DNA of 30,659 bases from positions 1-30,659 of the forward strand of contig JBFKJL010000001.1 in the NCBI GenBank assembly GCA_041631795.1, read 5' to 3'. This DNA is from Saprospiraceae bacterium (GTDB taxonomy: Bacteria; Bacteroidota; Bacteroidia; Chitinophagales; Saprospiraceae). Below, in pieces: positions 9,329-17,745 of the stretch. Made by a program: the position numbers and the translations under genes. Below the pieces are notes generated by a model that saw only the letters and a program-made list of their open reading frames with translations, was not told the origin of the DNA and made no database searches. Every line of letters starts with the position of its first letter. The stretch's first letter is position 1.

Positions 9329-9904
9329 ATGGAAAGAGATCAGAATAAATTCGTGCAAAGCAGCATGGCACTGCTCAAATACTACAAGACGATCACCGAC
9401 CAGTGCCTGGATCAGCTGACTGAAAATGAAATCAGGTACAGGCCAGACGACAGCCAGAACAGCATTCTTATCATTATTCAACACCTTATAGGCAATATGC
9501 GCTCAAGGTGGACAAATTTCTTAACAGAAGATGGCGAAAAACCCTGGAGACACCGGGATAAAGAATTTGAAGATTCTGGTATCCCGGTCAAAGATTTAAT
9601 GCAGGATTGGCAAAACGTATGGGCACTCGTGTTTGGTGAACTTGCCAAAATTGAAGACTCCGATCTTGAGAATTTGGTCTATATAAGGAATATGGGCCAC
9701 ACCATACGCGAGGCCATTCACAGGCAAATGACACACTGCGCTTACCATACCGGACAAATAGTTTTACTCGGTAAAATGTATAAAGGCCGGGATTGGCAGG
9801 CCCTGACGATCCCCAGGGGCAAGTCAGAATCTTTCAACGCTGCCCATTTTACCAATGAAAGATCAAGGAAACATTTTACAGATGAATTCCTCCAGGACGA
9901 TTAG
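9329..9904 (+). CDS. DUF1572 family (DinB-like) protein
   Basis: Family motifs NSILIIIQHLIGNMRSRWTNFLTEDGEKPWRHRDKEFE and HCAYHTGQIV. Start refined to ATG 9329. Confidence 0.88.
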   Translation: MERDQNKFVQSSMALLKYYKTITDQCLDQLTENEIRYRPDDSQNSILIIIQHLIGNMRSRWTNFLTEDGEKPWRHRDKEFEDSGIPVKDLMQDWQNVWALVFGELAKIEDSDLENLVYIRNMGHTIREAIHRQMTHCAYHTGQIVLLGKMYKGRDWQALTIPRGKSESFNAAHFTNERSRKHFTDEFLQDD

Positions 9905-10965
9905 GATCTGCCCGTGATCTGGAAAACTATTGTTCCACACATATCAGCTGCGGAAGACCTTTTAAACCAAAAATCATTGGATTTTCGAACTGCCAAAGAG
10001 ACCAGGCTCGGCGTATTGATACTTGAATCATTGGGATTGAAATCAGCGCTGATGACCTTTCCCCTGCTGTTAACACAAATATCCACAGCCACATGACCGG
10101 AATTTTCGGACAGGATGAGGATATTGGGTTGCTGGAGCAAACCCCGGCCACCAAGTCCATTCTTGATGAAAAGTGTCAGGTCCTCATCAACATAAATTTC
10201 ATTGACTGAGTCATCAATAAAAAAGTCATCTTCCTCCTGGATCTGAATGTCCTCAGGATCTCCAGGGTCTTTTTTCGGGTCAATATCATCTGCTGTCGCG
10301 GTATCCATCGCATCATTTTCCGGGACTTCGGGATGATAACCGCTGTGGAGAGTATCCGTTCTCGCGGGGAGATCGGTCCTGGCATCTTTGGTCACAGGGG
10401 AAGATTTCCCGGTTTTTCTCGCTTCCGCTTCTTTTGATCTGCTGATGTACTGGCTGCAGTACTTCCTGGATTGAACGAGGGCCCTGCTTGAACCCAGATC
10501 GACAGCGGCACTGATCACTTCACAAGCCTTATCTTCTTCTTCGAGCGCGAGGTAGGCTTCAGACAATGCCAGCATAGCCTCAACATCTTTATCATCGACA
10601 GCATAGTGAATACCTAATGTCTGTGATGCCGCGTCATAATCATTGAGTTTGAATTCCGCAAGTCCCAGCAGTTTTATACTTCGGGCATTGAGTCCTTTAA
10701 TGCCTATGTATTCAAGGATATCCTTCCTGACGCCTTTGTAGGCCGCCAGGGCGTATTTCGCCTCAGCTTTGAGCAATAAGACATCCTTGTATCCAGGATT
10801 CGACTCAATGATCTTATTGCACTCAGAAATGGCCTCTTCATACCTGTTTGTTTCGAGGAGATATTCAGCTTTCACATAAATAAACCCAAGCTCGGATTCC
10901 AATCCCTGCGCAGAGGCATAGAAGCTTGCAAGGATCAATACGCCTGTTGATATAATCTCTTTCAT
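9901..10965 (-). CDS. Exported TPR-repeat protein with acidic linker and C-terminal TonB-C-like domain
   Basis: Signal peptide MKEIISTGVLILASFYASA/Q. TPR-like helices (KAEYLLETNRYEEAISECNKII, LGLAEFKLNDYDAA, LSEAYLALEEEDKACE) are followed by an acidic Pro-containing linker. The C-terminal ~85 aa (GLGGRG, GHVAVDICVNSRGKVISA, GTIVFQI) resemble Bacteroidota TonB C-terminal domains. Start refined from 11028. Confidence 0.7.
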   Translation of the reverse strand: MKEIISTGVLILASFYASAQGLESELGFIYVKAEYLLETNRYEEAISECNKIIESNPGYKDVLLLKAEAKYALAAYKGVRKDILEYIGIKGLNARSIKLLGLAEFKLNDYDAASQTLGIHYAVDDKDVEAMLALSEAYLALEEEDKACEVISAAVDLGSSRALVQSRKYCSQYISRSKEAEARKTGKSSPVTKDARTDLPARTDTLHSGYHPEVPENDAMDTATADDIDPKKDPGDPEDIQIQEEDDFFIDDSVNEIYVDEDLTLFIKNGLGGRGLLQQPNILILSENSGHVAVDICVNSRGKVISADFNPNDSSINTPSLVSLAVRKSNDFWFKRSSAADMCGTIVFQITGRS

Positions 10966-10985: not shown

Positions 10986-11001
10986 ATAAAATTTCGTGCC
11001 A
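10986..11001 (-). promoter_or_regulatory. Candidate sigma54-type -24/-12 promoter for the TPR/TonB-like gene
   Basis: The minus strand reads TGGCACG-AAAT-TTTAT. The -24 box is perfect but the -12 box is degenerate (consensus TTGCW). It ends about 20 nt upstream of ATG 10965. Confidence 0.4.
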
Positions 11002-11092
11002 GTCATTGATTAGACGAGCATCAGTCAAAAAAGATTGTTATCACCGATTAAATTGACTTTAATCTTTCGTTAAAGCCAAAAGTGAAATGGTC

Positions 11093-11105
11093 TGTCATTT
11101 TGTCA
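11093..11105 (-). promoter_or_regulatory. TGACA-N3-TGACA direct repeat (candidate regulator site)
   Basis: The plus strand reads TGTCATTTTGTCA, which is TGACA-AAA-TGACA on the minus strand. The same motif occurs upstream of groES at 15643-15655. Confidence 0.4.
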
Positions 11106-11125
11106 CATCTGTGATTGAAAAAGTC

Positions 11126-11133
11126 TATTTTTG
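11126..11133 (+). promoter_or_regulatory. Possible Bacteroidota -7 element for the miaB operon
   Basis: TATTTTTG matches TAnnTTTG, 31 nt before ATG 11165. A TTTG at 11099-11102 gives a rather long 23-nt spacer. Confidence 0.35.
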
Positions 11134-11164
11134 TGCTCTGTTCGATCAACCACTGAATAAAAAG

Positions 11165-12601
11165 ATGTACGATAACAATCCAACACTCGAGGGTCTGACT
11201 AAAAACCTGGATGAAAATAAGCAAGGCCAGGTTTATTCACAAGTAAATGGGCCTAAAGACGTACATAAAAAATTCTACATCGAAAGCTATGGCTGTCAAA
11301 TGAATTTCAGCGATTCTGAAATTGTCGCCTCAATCCTTGCGGAAGAAGGCTTTGGGGCCACGGATCTTTACGATGAAGCTGACCTCATTCTGATCAATAC
11401 CTGTTCGATCAGGGAAAAAGCCGAAGAAACCGTTCGCAAAAGACTCCGTTTATTCGATAAGGTCAAGGCAAACAAACCAGGCACCCTTGTGGGTGTGCTG
11501 GGTTGTATGGCAGAAAGATTAAAATCCAAATTCCTGGAAGAAGAAAAATTGGTCGATATCGTGATTGGCCCGGATGCTTACAGGGATCTTCCGACCCTGG
11601 TCGCTGATGCTGAAGAGGGCAACCGGGGGGTCAATGTCTTTTTGTCCAGGGAAGAAACGTATGCGGACATTTCACCGATGCGCCTGGGTTCGAATGGCGT
11701 CTCTGCATTTATTTCGATTATGCGAGGGTGTGACAATATGTGTTCTTTTTGTGTCGTCCCGTTTACGAGAGGCCGGGAGCGCAGCCGTGATGCATATTCG
11801 ATTATAGCGGAAGCTTCTGATCTTTTCGAAAGAGGCTACAGGGAGGTTACCCTGCTCGGTCAAAATGTCGATTCCTACAAATGGGAAAATCCTCAAACGG
11901 GAAATACTGTGTCTTTTGCTGACTTGCTGGTGATGGTCGCTTCAGTTCATCCATTATTGAGAGTACGGTTTTCGACATCCCATCCCAAGGATATCACCGA
12001 TGATGTCCTGTTTGCTATCAGGGATTATCCCAATATCTGCAAATACATCCATTTGCCTGTTCAGTCGGGGAATTCCAGGATCCTCAAGCTAATGAACCGT
12101 ACGTATGACCGCGACTGGTACAAACAAAAAGTCCGGCGGATATACGAGATCGTGGAGGATTGCGCCATTTCATCAGATATCATTACGGGGTTTTGCTCGG
12201 AAACGGAAGAGGAACACAGGGATACCTTATCCATGATCCCCTGGGCCAATTTCAGCATGTCCTACATGTTTTATTATTCAGAAAGGCCGGGCACGCTTGC
12301 AGAACGCAAATACGATGACGATGTCCCCATGGAAGTGAAGAAGCGCAGGCTGAGCGAAGTGATCCGCTTTCAGAACCAGGTCTCATACAAGCACAATCAG
12401 AATGATATTGGAAAGGTCTTTGAAGTCCTCATTGAAGGCGATTCAAAAAGATCCGATCTCGACTTTAAAGGACGTAACAGCCAGAACAAGATGGTCGTTT
12501 TTCCAAAAAAACAGGGCCTCAGGGCAGGAGATTATGTCCATGTGATGATTGAAAGTGCATCCAGTGCCACTCTCATAGGTTCAATAGTCGAAACGCCATG
12601 A
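11165..12601 (+). CDS. miaB: tRNA-2-methylthio-N6-dimethylallyladenosine synthase
   Basis: UPF0004 domain cysteines (YGCQMN, NTCSIRE, GCMA), radical-SAM [24 protein letters not shown] and a C-terminal TRAM domain. Start refined to ATG 11165. Confidence 0.97.
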
Positions 12602-13875
12602 ATGTCCAATCCGTCAAACAACGTTATGCCATCGTCGGGCGGTCCCCCCTGCTGACAAGGGCGCTTCAAACGGCATTGCGTGTGGCATTGACCGACCTGA
12701 CAGTCCTTATTGAAGGTGAAAGCGGTGTGGGGAAAGAGGTCTTTTCAAAGATTATCCATGAAAATAGCAAGAGAAAGCATAATCCGTTTATAGCGATCAA
12801 TACAGGCGCCATCCCCGAGGGCACGATCAATTCAGAGTTGTTTGGCCATGAGAAAGGCGCATTTACCGGGGCCGTCAGTGACCGCAAAGGCTATTTTGAA
12901 GCCGTCAACGGCGGGACCATCTTTCTCGATGAAATTGGTGAAATGCCCCTGGATACCCAGGCCTTTCTTTTACGTGTGTTAGAGACTGGGGAATTCATTA
13001 AGGTCGGGTCATCCAAGGTCCAGAAAACAGATGTACGGGTGATTGCCGCGACAAACGTTGACCTTCAAAAGAGGATCCAGAAAGGGAAGTTTCGCGAAGA
13101 TCTTTATTACAGGCTCAATACGGTGCCCATAAAACTCCCCGCCCTCCATGAGCGCCGTGAGGACATCCCCTTGTTTTTCAGAAAATTTGCCGGTGATTTT
13201 GCAGAAAAATACCGGACTGAACCCGTCAGGCTTGATGAGCGCAGCATGTTGCTGCTCGAAAATTACAGGTGGCCAGGCAATATTCGCGAATTGAGAAATC
13301 TTGTCGAGCAGTTGTCCGTCCTTTCGGAAGAAAATTTTATTACGGTTGAAGAACTCATCGAGGTGGCCCCTCAACTGATGAAAAGAAATTTGCCCGCATC
13401 CGCAAGTCAGCTCAAAGAAAGCAAGGATATCGAGGAGCGGGAAATCCTCTACAAATTTCTTTTCGAAATGAAAAATGATTTGAGTGACCTCAAATCGCTG
13501 GTCTTCGAACTTATCCGCAGAAACGACCTGGAAGTGCCGAATTTAAAGCAATTGACGACCCTTTCCGGAGCTTATACCAGACAGAGCATGGAAGAAAGCA
13601 CCCCGGATGAGGTCCGCAGGCATGCACCCATCATCGAAGGTGATGATGATACTATCGTGGCCATAGAAAAGCCCATTCTCATCTCCAGGGATGCCTATAA
13701 CTATGGTCAAAGTGAGGTGGTTGAAGAAAACCTTAGCCTCGAGGAGAAAACCAAGGAATTGATCCTCAAAGCATTAAAAAAACACAAAGGGAGACGCAAG
13801 GATGCGGCTGATGAACTCGGCATCTCTGAACGGACACTATACAGGAAAATCAAGGAATACGACATTGACATATGA
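12598..13875 (+). CDS. Sigma54-interacting AAA+ activator (bacterial enhancer-binding protein) with Fis-type HTH and no receiver domain
   Basis: Walker A GESGVGKE, intact [40 protein letters not shown] and C-terminal [26 protein letters not shown] overlaps with both miaB and lptE. Confidence 0.95.
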
Positions 13876-14357
13876 GGTGTTTGCTCTATATTTCATGCTT
13901 CCTTCAAGTTTCATGCTACAGCTTTAAAGGCATAACAATTCCTCCTGAAATTAAATCCTACTATGTTGAGGATTTCACAAACAACACGCTCAACGCCCCT
14001 CCCGAAATAGATCAGCTATTTTCTGAAGCCCTCCGAAAGATCATCAGGGAGCAATCCCGTTTGACTTACACAGAAACAGATCCTGACATCACATTCTCAG
14101 GCAGCATCGTCGGTTTCAGGGTCGTTGCTGTCGCCCCGGTAGAAGGCAATACCACGGCATTGAACAGGCTTGAAGTATCCGTGCAGATCAATTACAGGAA
14201 TATCCGGGATAGTGAAGAAGACTGGGATAAACGGTATTCGGACTTCGAAGATTTCAGCACGGATGTTGATCTTTCCTCGGTCCAGGATGAGTTGGTTGCA
14301 GACATCGTCGCCGATATCGCAGAACGTGTTTTCAATGACTCATTTACCAACTGGTAG
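13872..14357 (+). CDS. lptE: LptE-family lipoprotein (LPS assembly)
   Basis: Lipobox-like LQVS-C followed by YSFKGITIP, which resembles the Bacteroidota LptE N-terminus. Also has NRLEVSVQINY and C-terminal IAERVFNDSFTNW. Confidence 0.7.
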   Translation: MRCLLYISCFLQVSCYSFKGITIPPEIKSYYVEDFTNNTLNAPPEIDQLFSEALRKIIREQSRLTYTETDPDITFSGSIVGFRVVAVAPVEGNTTALNRLEVSVQINYRNIRDSEEDWDKRYSDFEDFSTDVDLSSVQDELVADIVADIAERVFNDSFTNW

Positions 14358-14417
14358 CGCCGGTTTTAGTGTATAATATTCTTTTAATATGATGATTTTC
14401 TTTAATTTTCCATCAAA

Positions 14418-15335
14418 ATGACCTTCGTGAGCCTCACCTCATTGTTAAATTCACCCGATGCGACAAAAAATATTGGTCTTGGCCAGATCAGGCGTTTATT
14501 TGAGGCTTTCCCGTTCAGTCAGCCGATCAGGAAACTATTGGAATCAAAACTGCCACAGCTCGAACAAGCCCCTTTTTCTCCTGCCTACATCTATCATTGG
14601 CCGACCCATTACAGGTATTCAGAATCAGGCAATAAGCGGGGCGAAGCCGTACGTGATGAAAGTATCTACACCGTAGATTCCATATCCATCAAGGTTAAAA
14701 AGCAGAATGAAACATCCGTTGAAGAATTTTTACCTGGACCGGCCATTGTCCCCGAGACAGTAAAACCAGGTGATAAACCTGCCAAGGTCAAGATCAAGAA
14801 GAAGAAGAAGAAGGAGAAGGAGAAGGAGAAGGAGAAGGAGAAGGAGAAAAAGAGAAAACAGAAAAAAGCCAAAAAACAAAAGAACAGGCGCCAAAAGATC
14901 ATTGCTTCCATCATCAGCAAAAAGACAAAAAAAGACAGTGTGAAAGCCTCGATCAAAAAGAAAAAATCGGCGAGGAAGAAAAAACTGCGGCGAAAAAAAA
15001 ATTGGAAATGTCTGACAGACAGCAAGCATGGGCCGCTTTCAGAATTCACGACATGGATAAATTCCATTGAAATGCAGAAAGACAGGGAGGCAAAAGGATC
15101 ACAACCTGTTGATAATGAACCTGTTCGACATCCTGAGGTATTTGATATTCAAAACGAAGCCCGTTCCAGTATAAAACTGAATGCAAATATAGTTTCAGAA
15201 CAATTGGCACTGTTGTTTGAACAGCAGGGACACTACCCAGAAGCCATTATGATGTACAAGAAACTGAGTTTGATATTTCCCGAAAAAAACACGTTCTTTG
15301 CGCAAAAAATTGAGGACCTCTCAAATTTGTTATAA
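14418..15335 (+). CDS. Hypothetical protein with Lys-rich low-complexity centre and C-terminal TPR-like helix pair
   Basis: 305 aa open frame. The N-terminal FPFSQPIRKLL and C-terminal VSEQLALLFEQQGHYPEAIMMYKKLSLIFPEKNTFFAQKIEDL resemble the conserved Bacteroidota hypothetical protein found between lptE and secG. Confidence 0.8.
   Translation: MTFVSLTSLLNSPDATKNIGLGQIRRLFEAFPFSQPIRKLLESKLPQLEQAPFSPAYIYHWPTHYRYSESGNKRGEAVRDESIYTVDSISIKVKKQNETSVEEFLPGPAIVPETVKPGDKPAKVKIKKKKKKEKEKEKEKEKEKKRKQKKAKKQKNRRQKIIASIISKKTKKDSVKASIKKKKSARKKKLRRKKNWKCLTDSKHGPLSEFTTWINSIEMQKDREAKGSQPVDNEPVRHPEVFDIQNEARSSIKLNANIVSEQLALLFEQQGHYPEAIMMYKKLSLIFPEKNTFFAQKIEDLSNLL
14796..14846 (+). repeat. In-frame simple sequence repeat: (AAG)6 overlapping (AAGGAG)6
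   Basis: AAG x6 at 14796-14813 and AAGGAG x6 at 14811-14846, encoding KKKKKK-EKEKEKEKEKE. Confidence 0.95.
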
Positions 15336-15338
15336 CAT

Positions 15339-15617
15339 ATGATTACTGCACTGACCATTCTAATTGCCCTGAACGCCTTTTTACTTATGGCTGTTGTTCT
15401 CATCCAAAACCCCAAGGGCGGTGGCGTCGACTCGACGTTCGGGGGTCAAGGGGCGAACCAAATGTTCGGTGCAGCCAGATCGACTGATTTCATTGAAAAG
15501 CTGACCTGGGGTCTGGCCACCTCAATGTTTGTCCTCGCCATTATCACAGCTATTATTGTCAGCAACGGTACTGTGGGCACAGGTGGAGAAATTCCGCTGT
15601 CATCCCAGCAAGGGTAA
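15339..15617 (+). CDS. secG: Preprotein translocase subunit SecG
   Basis: Two TM segments flanking VLIQNPKGGGVDSTFGG and TDFIEKLTW. Confidence 0.95.
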   Translation: MITALTILIALNAFLLMAVVLIQNPKGGGVDSTFGGQGANQMFGAARSTDFIEKLTWGLATSMFVLAIITAIIVSNGTVGTGGEIPLSSQQG

Positions 15618-15642
15618 GTACGTTTTGACCGTCTGATTATTA

Positions 15643-15669
15643 TGACATTTTGACAAGTTACTTTGTCAA
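15643..15669 (+). promoter_or_regulatory. TGACA-N3-TGACA direct repeat overlapping a TTGACAA-N6-TTGTCAA palindrome upstream of groES
   Basis: TGACA-TTT-TGACA at 15643-15655, plus perfect 7-bp inverted arms at 15650-15656 and 15663-15669. Confidence 0.5.
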
Positions 15670-15730
15670 CATTGACGTTGTTTTGCCCATTTCCGGGGCT
15701 TTGACTGAAATTTTGGCATGATGAGACAAA

Positions 15731-15746
15731 TGGCACATTTCCTGAT
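15731..15746 (+). promoter_or_regulatory. Candidate sigma54-type -24/-12 promoter for groES-groEL
   Basis: TGGCACA-TTTC-CTGAT compared with consensus TGGCACG-N4-TTGCW. The GG and the -13 G are correctly spaced, but -12 is A. It ends 56 nt before the groES ATG. Confidence 0.45.
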
Positions 15747-15802
15747 GTCAATCCGGTGAAGAAATAATTTTTTGACCTAATAAACATTACAATTTAATTT
15801 CT

Positions 15803-16069
15803 ATGAAACCCATAAATGATAGAGTAGTAGTGAAACCTTCTCCTGCGGACGAAAAGTCACGAGGAGGTATTATCATTCCTGACACAGCCAAAGAAAAACC
15901 CCAAAAAGGTGAAGTCATTGCGGTTGGTCCGGGAAAAGATGGAAACTTAATGACTGTAAAAGAAGGCGATATCGTGCTTTATGGCAAATACGCTGGCCAG
16001 GAAATCAATTACCTGGGACAAGATTACCTGATTATGCGTGAGGATGACATACTTGTCATTTTGGACTAA
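15803..16069 (+). CDS. groES: Co-chaperonin GroES
   Basis: Motifs [36 protein letters not shown] and IMREDDIL. Confidence 0.98.

Positions 16070-16089: not shown

Positions 16090-17745
<1,656 letters not shown>

Follow-up and report, generated by a model that had tools for sequence, protein, structure and literature searches.

What drives the groES-groEL operon, and whether the activator gene that lies upstream of it is the regulator concerned, are the questions raised by the window analysed here, which is the whole of contig C1 (30,659 nt) of a Saprospiraceae assembly (G000; 2.78 Mb in 446 contigs, 46% G+C, 85% complete) whose nearest named relatives are uncultured marine Saprospiraceae. The plus strand of the window carries groES (15803-16069; NCBIfam GroES, 2.2e-35) and groEL (16114-17745; NCBIfam GroEL, 2.5e-252), together with an operon whose first gene is miaB (11165-12601, with its ATG at 11165; TIGR01574, 1.7e-133) and whose next gene (12598-13875; PF00158, 5e-69, and PF02954, 1e-13) encodes a sigma-54 activator, or bacterial enhancer-binding protein (bEBP). 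The initial annotation of this DNA proposed that the bEBP drives both groES-groEL and a TPR/TonB-like gene (9901-10965, minus strand) from promoters that have three elements and their order in common.

The closed complex in which sigma-54 holoenzyme binds promoters of the GG-N10-GC type depends for its opening on ATP hydrolysis by a bEBP hexamer bound upstream. The core promoter, the candidate binding sites for an activator and the activator itself are considered in turn below. The reading that the comparisons favour is that groES-groEL is driven by a sigma-54 promoter on which the bEBP acts through copies of a 13-bp box, TGNCA-N3-TGNCA, that the bEBP also regulates its own operon through the same box, and that the TPR gene lies outside the regulon. 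Judged from sequence comparison, this reading has a probability of about 0.68.

The groES core promoter

The site at 15731-15746 on the plus strand reads TGGCAC ATTTC CTGAT (TGGCACATTTCCTGAT) and, by its sequence and its conservation, is a genuine sigma-54-type promoter of groES-groEL, as had been proposed. The distance from the GG to the conserved G at -13 is 10 bp, which is that of the canonical frame TGGCAC-N5-TTGC; the -12 base is A where the consensus has C, so that the GC doublet is absent. The predicted transcription start lies near 15757, 46 nt 5' of the ATG.

The upstream DNA of groES in relatives is otherwise unalignable, but it contains TGGCAY-N6-TGA(T/C) 63-150 nt before the start codon, and the core and the box adjoining it (described below) are the sole conserved blocks in the footprint alignment. 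When a search is made 40-160 nt before the start codon, TGGCAY is present before groES in 28 of 29 relatives and before dnaK in 28 of 30, and it is accompanied by G at -13 in 27/29 and 28/30. These sites are anchored on TGGCAY alone, so that the G is not required by the pattern, and G stands at +13 of the anchored site in 27 of 33 cases for groES and 29 of 32 for dnaK, the remainder being second copies or a variant with a 1-nt difference in spacing, while the following position (+14) is A in 22/33 and 20/32 and sometimes C. At clpB the -24 half is weaker in relatives and the TTGAT is the same. The core promoters before groES, dnaK and clpB are conserved across one family and sixteen others of the order, and the groES motif also occurs in named records of Sphingobacteriales, Mucilaginibacter, Pedobacter, Bacteroidales, Draconibacterium, Lentimicrobiaceae and Cryomorphaceae.

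The same promoter type is found in this genome at six further chaperone or protease operons, namely dnaK (C330:1545), grpE-dnaJ (C34:3083, minus), clpB (C31:6535), an htpG-like gene (C368:798, minus), hsp20 (C23:1178) and lon (C113:6931), where it has the form GG-N10-G with a -12 element that is mostly TTGAT. The sigma factor itself is present: the search for rpoN that the initial annotation had proposed returns G000:C22:4304-5755 at 388.8 bits against a cut-off of 277, and the genome holds both rpoN and at least one bEBP with the GAFTGA motif. The usual alternatives for chaperone control were not detected, since CIRCE gave 0 matches in the window at up to 3 mismatches (its absence before groES had been remarked on earlier), hrcA (TIGR00331) was not found in the assembly, and no match in the assembly exceeded the family cut-off for rpoH.

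A mapped counterpart of this promoter set exists in the same phylum. In Flavobacterium psychrophilum, transcription start sites (TSSs) have been mapped by RNA sequencing of 5' ends, and a sigma-54 motif, SM4, was assigned to groES-groEL, lon, dnaK, grpE-dnaJ, htpG, skp and clpB (Guerin et al. 2021, ISME Commun., PMC9723704). Compared with Table 2 of that paper, groESL, dnaK, grpE-dnaJ, clpB, lon and, as the htpG-like gene, htpG are all found with the promoter type in the present genome, so that the chaperone part of the “chaperone/envelope” regulon suggested by the initial annotation agrees with a published regulon, whereas its envelope part, in so far as it rested on the TPR gene, is not supported (see below). 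The supplementary table of the same paper lists the promoters of groS (TTGGCATAATTTCTGAAAAG), clpB (TTGGAATAACAATTGACGAT) and lon (ATGGCACAATCCTTGACTTA), and because these TSS-mapped promoters deviate at -12 in the same way, the A at this position is better regarded as a feature of the lineage than as a disqualification.

Chance matches in AT-rich intergenic DNA, with groES transcribed by the housekeeping sigmaA and no sigma-54 system involved, would account for the off-consensus -12 element. The caveat that the DNA is AT-rich does apply, and the sequencing runs that hold the window are DNA metagenomes only, with no RNA run among them. This explanation can nevertheless be given almost no weight: it does not accommodate the survival of the core and its adjoining box as the only conserved blocks in DNA that cannot otherwise be aligned, the recurrence of the motif at the six further operons, or the mapped sigma-54-type starts of the orthologous F. 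psychrophilum promoters, and the genome as a whole has a G+C content of 46%. A scan for promoters and terminators of the E. coli type gave nothing useful, the model being that of E. coli and the host a member of the Bacteroidota.

The paired box upstream of the chaperone promoters

The half-site TGNCA is its own complement at the fixed positions, and the box TGNCA-N3-TGNCA can therefore be regarded as a direct repeat and equally as a dyad, an arrangement appropriate to a dimeric protein with a helix-turn-helix (HTH) domain. Two copies precede the groES core on the plus strand. The distal one (TGACATTTTGACA, 15643-15655) starts 88 nt upstream of TGGCAC, at about -113 from the predicted start, and its position thus resembles that of an enhancer, or upstream activating sequence. 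The proximal one (TGAAATTTTGGCA, 15706-15718) is of the variant form TGNMA-N3-TGNCA and lies 12 nt upstream of TGGCAC, a gap that is kept at 12-13 nt in about 25 of 29 relatives.

The initial annotation had recognised a repeated TGACA as an element shared between two regions, and had suggested a genome-wide scan for it. In the 2.78-Mb assembly, exact matches to TGNCA-W3-TGNCA occur at 13 loci, five of which have a TTT or AAA spacer (two of these being the copies noted initially), and they include groES (-88 from TGGCA), hsp20 (-56), the htpG-like gene (13 nt before its core) and the region between miaB and the TPR gene; clpB, lon and grpE have copies with one mismatch. In relatives, the 160 nt that precede the core contain an exact box in 15 of 26 cases for groES, 9 of 29 for dnaK and 4 of 17 for clpB, as compared with 0.14, 0.10 and about 0 expected from dinucleotide shuffles, which amounts to an enrichment of roughly 100-fold. 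The positions of the boxes peak at about -25 and at -80 to -100 from TGGCA, the latter cluster being that seen at groES and dnaK. The repeat is thus well supported as an enhancer-like element shared by the chaperone promoters. A strict composite pattern (box, 10-14 nt, TGGYA-N7-TKR) applied to five complete relatives gave 5 matches and 4 in the reversed control.

Two simpler identities for the box were considered and rejected. A plain -33 element of sigmaA would not be expected to keep both of its TGNCA halves or to recur at sigma-54 promoters, as this box does, and the box is not a tandem -24 element, since at miaB it is paired with a sigmaA element, TAnnTTTG.

The interval from secA to a neighbouring gene for an aldehyde dehydrogenase, near which there is no sigma-54 core, holds one further exact box (TGTCAAAATGGCA, C31:688-700). 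The element TATTTTTG, also found at the miaB promoter (see below), lies 35 nt from it on the minus strand. This box could be a further target or a chance occurrence.

The activator and its operon

The bEBP encoded at 12598-13875 has an AAA+ domain that begins at residue 12 (PF00158 covers residues 12-178) and contains GAFTGA, and a Fis-type HTH at residues 381-420 (PF02954 covers 386-421). With nothing before residue 12 and with the AAA+ domain, GAFTGA and C-terminal HTH all present, it belongs by domain content to the sensor-less, PspF-like class. In the AlphaFold model, confidence is high for the AAA+ domain and the HTH and poor for the linker (264-379), which holds a conserved helix at 279-308 with the alignment consensus EREILYKxLFDMKxDLNDLKxxVxEL; this helix may have a role in regulation or oligomerisation. 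The sequence of the HTH hardly varies within the order. The initial annotation was right to place a GAFTGA activator between the two regions it compared, and this protein is the only true PF00158 protein in the assembly. Each of the 40 relatives has an orthologue, as have, at E <= 1e-80, 330 of the 401 genomes of a phylum sample that holds no reduced endosymbiont genomes; every genome of the class in that sample is among these 330.

The gene is embedded in a conserved neighbourhood. The miaB stop codon overlaps the bEBP start codon, the order miaB-bEBP-lptE is kept in nearly all of 39 relatives, and about a dozen of these have groES no more than a few kb further downstream. Upstream of miaB stands the copy of the box that the initial annotation read on the minus strand as TGACA-AAA-TGACA; read on the plus strand it is TGTCATTTTGTCA (11093-11105), and it is a candidate autoregulatory operator. 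A Bacteroidota sigmaA -7 element, TATTTTTG (11126-11133, plus strand), lies 20 nt downstream of it and conforms to the TAnnTTTG consensus quoted in PMC9723704; the box thus spans about -47 to -35 from the predicted sigmaA start, over the -35 region. This arrangement recurs before miaB in relatives, with an exact box 9-23 nt (mostly 17-21 nt) upstream of TAnnTTTG in 71 of 88 usable loci drawn from two locus sets that may share genomes, and in 27 of 36 loci in one of two sets of relatives. The consensus of the box at these promoters is C-TG(C/A)CA-WWW-TG(T)CA-Y. Where the bEBP gene is not preceded by miaB, the box still lies upstream of it, exactly in L254 and L263 and with one mismatch in L249, L244 and L198.

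The maintenance of the box at the miaB-bEBP promoter makes the sensor-less activator a likely binder of the box and a likely autoregulator, and a box that recurs throughout the class before the operon of a regulator, and also before a coherent group of target genes, is the classic operator signature of that regulator. The earlier suggestion that the activator may regulate itself through a site in the region divergent from miaB fits this pattern. The boxes are enriched, positioned as enhancers and conserved at the bEBP operon, and are candidate enhancer sites of the bEBP.

Several observations weigh against this reading and must be set beside those in its favour. The off-consensus -12 base and the restriction of the window to DNA runs have been described, as has the possible overlap of the two locus sets; the relatives behind the conservation counts are also not mutually independent. 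Compared with groES, dnaK and clpB have a less regular box. The proximal groES box spans about -50 to -38, and its centre, about 45 nt from the start, is closer than usual for bEBP sites; this box may serve for assembly of the hexamer beside the closed complex, or as a brake. The location of a box next to a regulator gene suggests binding by that regulator and does not prove it. Finally, the assembly, which is 85% complete, may lack a second activator, since two or more bEBPs are encoded in most relatives.

The last of these points leads to a different account, in which the boxes are real and are bound by another protein, either a second activator lost from the assembly or a heat-shock repressor, while the local bEBP serves other targets or acts from solution. 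The proximal box, which abuts the -24 element, and the miaB box, which overlaps the -35 region, do occupy positions typical of repressor sites, and the genome contains three canonical sigma-54 sites of the type TGGCAY-N5-TTGC (C43:11037, minus; C189:4082, plus; C269:299, minus) that need some activator. These sites imply a second activator, of which none is present in the assembly; they have no box, however, and would for that reason be better candidates for its targets than the chaperone promoters are. The account also has to contend with the conservation of the box at this bEBP's operon across the class, with its persistence beside the bEBP gene when miaB is elsewhere, with the distal copies at enhancer distance, and with the presence of a bEBP orthologue in every genome of the class sample, which is matched by that of sigma-54 chaperone promoters wherever these were looked for. 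Binding by a different protein is accordingly considered unlikely, and binding by the bEBP is preferred.

The genes behind the three canonical sites encode a LuxR-type response regulator, a CxxCxxCC-domain protein and an 89-aa protein.

The site upstream of the TPR gene

All of the strings on which the three-part comparison was based are present in the sequence: TGACATTTTGACA (15643-15655), TTTGACTGA (15700-15708) and TGGCACATTTCCTGAT (15731-15746) on the groES side, and TGACAAAATGACA (11105-11093), TTTGACTGA (11029-11021) and TGGCACGAAATTTTAT (11001-10986) on the minus strand upstream of the TPR gene. The spacings to TGGCAC given for the repeats (75 and 91 nt) and for the 9-mers (22 and 19 nt) are also correct. 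The comparison itself holds only in part, and the shared three-part arrangement does not extend to the TPR gene, because the 9-mer is explicable by chance and the -12 element on the TPR side lacks the conserved G.

The shared 9-mer was rejected as an element, since 19% of shuffled region pairs share a 9-mer; on the groES side only its 3' TGA (15706-15708) overlaps the start of the proximal box. The site TGGCACGAAATTTTAT (10986-11001, minus strand) has the form TGGCACG-N4-TTTAT and is judged not to be a functional sigma-54 promoter. Its -12 element, TTTAT, has T in place of the -13 G that is kept in 27/33 and 29/32 of the anchored groES and dnaK sites, and the site lies 36 nt from the ATG as against 41-150 nt in accepted sites. 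No sigma-54 core was found upstream of the TPR orthologues in G024 (L183), L188 and L192, where the best position weight matrix (PWM) scores are 3.6, 6.3 and 4.4; the orthologues in L188 and L192 are copies divergent from miaB.

The full scheme of the initial annotation, in which one activator would drive groES-groEL and the TPR/TonB-like gene as a chaperone and envelope regulon, is not devoid of support. The TGGCACG matches the -24 element perfectly and has an exact box 91 nt upstream, and the PWM score of the site (11.6) is not below those of the accepted clpB, lon, grpE and htpG-like sites (9.2-10.6); envelope proteins, Skp and a rhomboid protease among them, likewise belong to the sigma-54 set of F. 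psychrophilum (PMC9723704). Since the score alone cannot reject the site, the rejection is based on the missing G and on the lack of conservation. In addition, relatives carry the box credited to the TPR gene in front of miaB-bEBP, mostly with no TPR gene nearby, and the TPR gene lies outside the conserved miaB-bEBP-lptE neighbourhood in the 39 relatives. From these sequence features, the TPR/TonB-like gene is not part of the regulon, with only a small residual chance of membership, and the scheme that includes it is correspondingly improbable.

Comparison with known systems

A functional parallel to the proposed circuit is offered by PspF, the activator of the E. coli phage-shock response. 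PspF is a bEBP without an N-terminal sensor; it has sites at its own sigma-70-type promoter, which it represses through these enhancer sites in negative autoregulation, and at its target sigma-54 promoter, and its activity, like that of other sensor-less bEBPs, is set by a partner protein. The present bEBP likewise lacks an N-terminal sensor domain and consists of an AAA+ domain and an HTH. It differs from PspF in its 115-residue linker and in its sequence, which is nearer to NtrC1, NifA and FleQ; its nearest solved relatives are the AAA+ domains of NtrC1, NifA, NtrC and FleQ, with PspF more distant. The systems differ as well, since no PspA homologue (PF04012) was found in the 85%-complete assembly, and the targets here are cytoplasmic chaperones where those of Psp are membrane-stress genes. 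By analogy, the bEBP may work like PspF, but it is not a member of the Psp system.

A heat-shock gene under a sigma-54 promoter with a dedicated bEBP is known from Myxococcus xanthus, where HsfA and HsfB control lonD, and a similar relationship is proposed here. HsfA, however, is a receiver-domain response regulator that is paired with a kinase, whereas the present activator has no receiver domain and no adjacent kinase. Sigma-32 (RpoH) and HrcA/CIRCE act on the same target genes and presumably have the same physiological role as the regulon described here, but the promoter in the present case needs an ATP-dependent activator.

The F. psychrophilum SM4 regulon agrees with that of the Saprospiraceae genome in phylum, in gene set and in the TGA/TTGA form at -12, and a TGTCA half-box lies 12 nt before the TGGCAT core of groS, as the proximal box does at groES. 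Its starts were mapped by RNA sequencing, while the Saprospiraceae promoters are known from sequence alone. The SM4 study noted three PF00158 proteins in F. psychrophilum, named no activator and described no upstream box (PMC9723704); the box, its copy at the activator operon and a single candidate activator are what the present work adds to it. A survey with position-specific scoring matrices (PLoS One 2025, PMC12316311) found sigma-54 promoter predictions to be enriched at GroEL, GroES, IbpA, GrpE, DnaJ and DnaK genes in Bacteroidota and Planctomycetota; this survey is one of prediction only, at the level of COGs, with no enhancer site or activator, and it does not treat Saprospiraceae specifically. 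In the literature searched, no activator of the Bacteroidota sigma-54 chaperone promoters is named, and the main text of Francke 2011 makes no mention of Bacteroidetes, miaB, groE, secG or lptE. Sigma-54 control of chaperones has therefore already been published for the phylum; the box and the assignment of an activator to it were not found in the literature searched and form, as a prediction, a well-supported addition.

Proposed mechanism

In the mechanism proposed here, RpoN holoenzyme would transcribe groES-groEL from the site at 15731-15746, and promoters of the same type would serve dnaK, grpE-dnaJ, clpB, the htpG-like gene, hsp20 and lon, forming the counterpart in Bacteroidota of the heat-shock regulon that sigma-32 or HrcA/CIRCE would otherwise control. 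The Fis-type HTH of the bEBP would bind TGNCA-N3-TGNCA, and the protein would activate groES-groEL and the other chaperone operons by means of ATP hydrolysis; the distal groES box, about 113 nt upstream of the predicted start, is at the usual distance for an enhancer, and the second box would place the protein next to the -24 element. When it occupies the box that overlies the -35 region of the miaB-bEBP sigmaA promoter, the bEBP would most likely limit its own synthesis in the manner of PspF. It would be released or activated when proteins misfold, and, because it has no sensor domain, its activity is probably set in trans. Titration of the bEBP by chaperones, or a switch involving the conserved linker helix, are guesses as to how this might be accomplished.

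A broader form of the mechanism can be stated for the phylum as a whole. The miaB-linked bEBP might be the master heat-shock activator of Bacteroidota, binding CTGNCA-N3-TGNCA at enhancer distance and beside the -24 element of TTGA-type promoters, repressing its own sigmaA promoter through the same box, and responding in trans to the state of protein folding in the cell, for example by chaperone titration acting on the AAA+ domain or on helix 279-308. The odds for this general form are about even.

Other features of the window and genome

Downstream of the bEBP gene on the plus strand lie lptE (13872-14357), a gene for a 305-aa protein with no Pfam or NCBIfam match (14418-15335) and secG (15339-15617). 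The 305-aa protein contains a long low-complexity run rich in K and E (about 14780-15010), and conservation across the order, in the position from lptE to secG, is confined to its last ~55 residues; the protein is a constant companion of the activator operon.

Two chaperone-type genes of the assembly call for separate mention. The htpG-like gene (C368:116-757, minus) encodes 214 aa that comprise only the HSP90-type ATPase N-domain and stops 115 nt from the contig end, and PF00183, which represents the middle and C-terminal part of HSP90, has no match anywhere in the assembly; either the gene is broken or the assembly is at fault. A second, divergent Hsp70 paralogue (C39:9803-11533, minus) scores 628 bits, under the dnaK cut-off, and many relatives carry one.

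A PWM scan without an intergenic filter is dominated by noise from coding regions. Weaker sites of the TGG-N9-TTGAT type without boxes are found at C23:2896 (minus), C29:4397 (minus) and C46:8970 (plus), where they precede an SLT transglycosylase gene (by 175 nt), a gene for an extracytoplasmic function (ECF) sigma factor (215 nt) and a tail-specific protease gene (47 nt), and these are possible envelope-side members of the sigma-54 set. A near-identical string, TCGTGGCACGAGTTTT, which contains a CGTG-G-CACG inverted repeat, recurs at C358:185 (minus), C271:1332 (minus), C329:61 (plus), C329:1567 (plus) and C42:13246 (minus), often near contig ends, and is a false positive when scored for the sigma-54 -24 element; the string may represent a dispersed repeat or the site of another factor.

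Implications

The Bacteroidota lack the two textbook heat-shock regulators, and what has been published for them is the existence of sigma-54 chaperone promoters, not the activator that serves these promoters or the means by which heat or misfolding is sensed. The window examined here brings together the whole of a candidate circuit, with the activator gene, its putative autoregulatory box, and the candidate enhancer boxes and promoter of groES-groEL in one place, and it comes from a genome in which the candidate activator is the only one assembled. The TPR/TonB-like gene and the shared 9-mer have been removed as a false lead. If the miaB-linked bEBP is indeed the master heat-shock activator, this would answer the question of how chaperones are controlled in a phylum that has neither sigma-32 nor HrcA.

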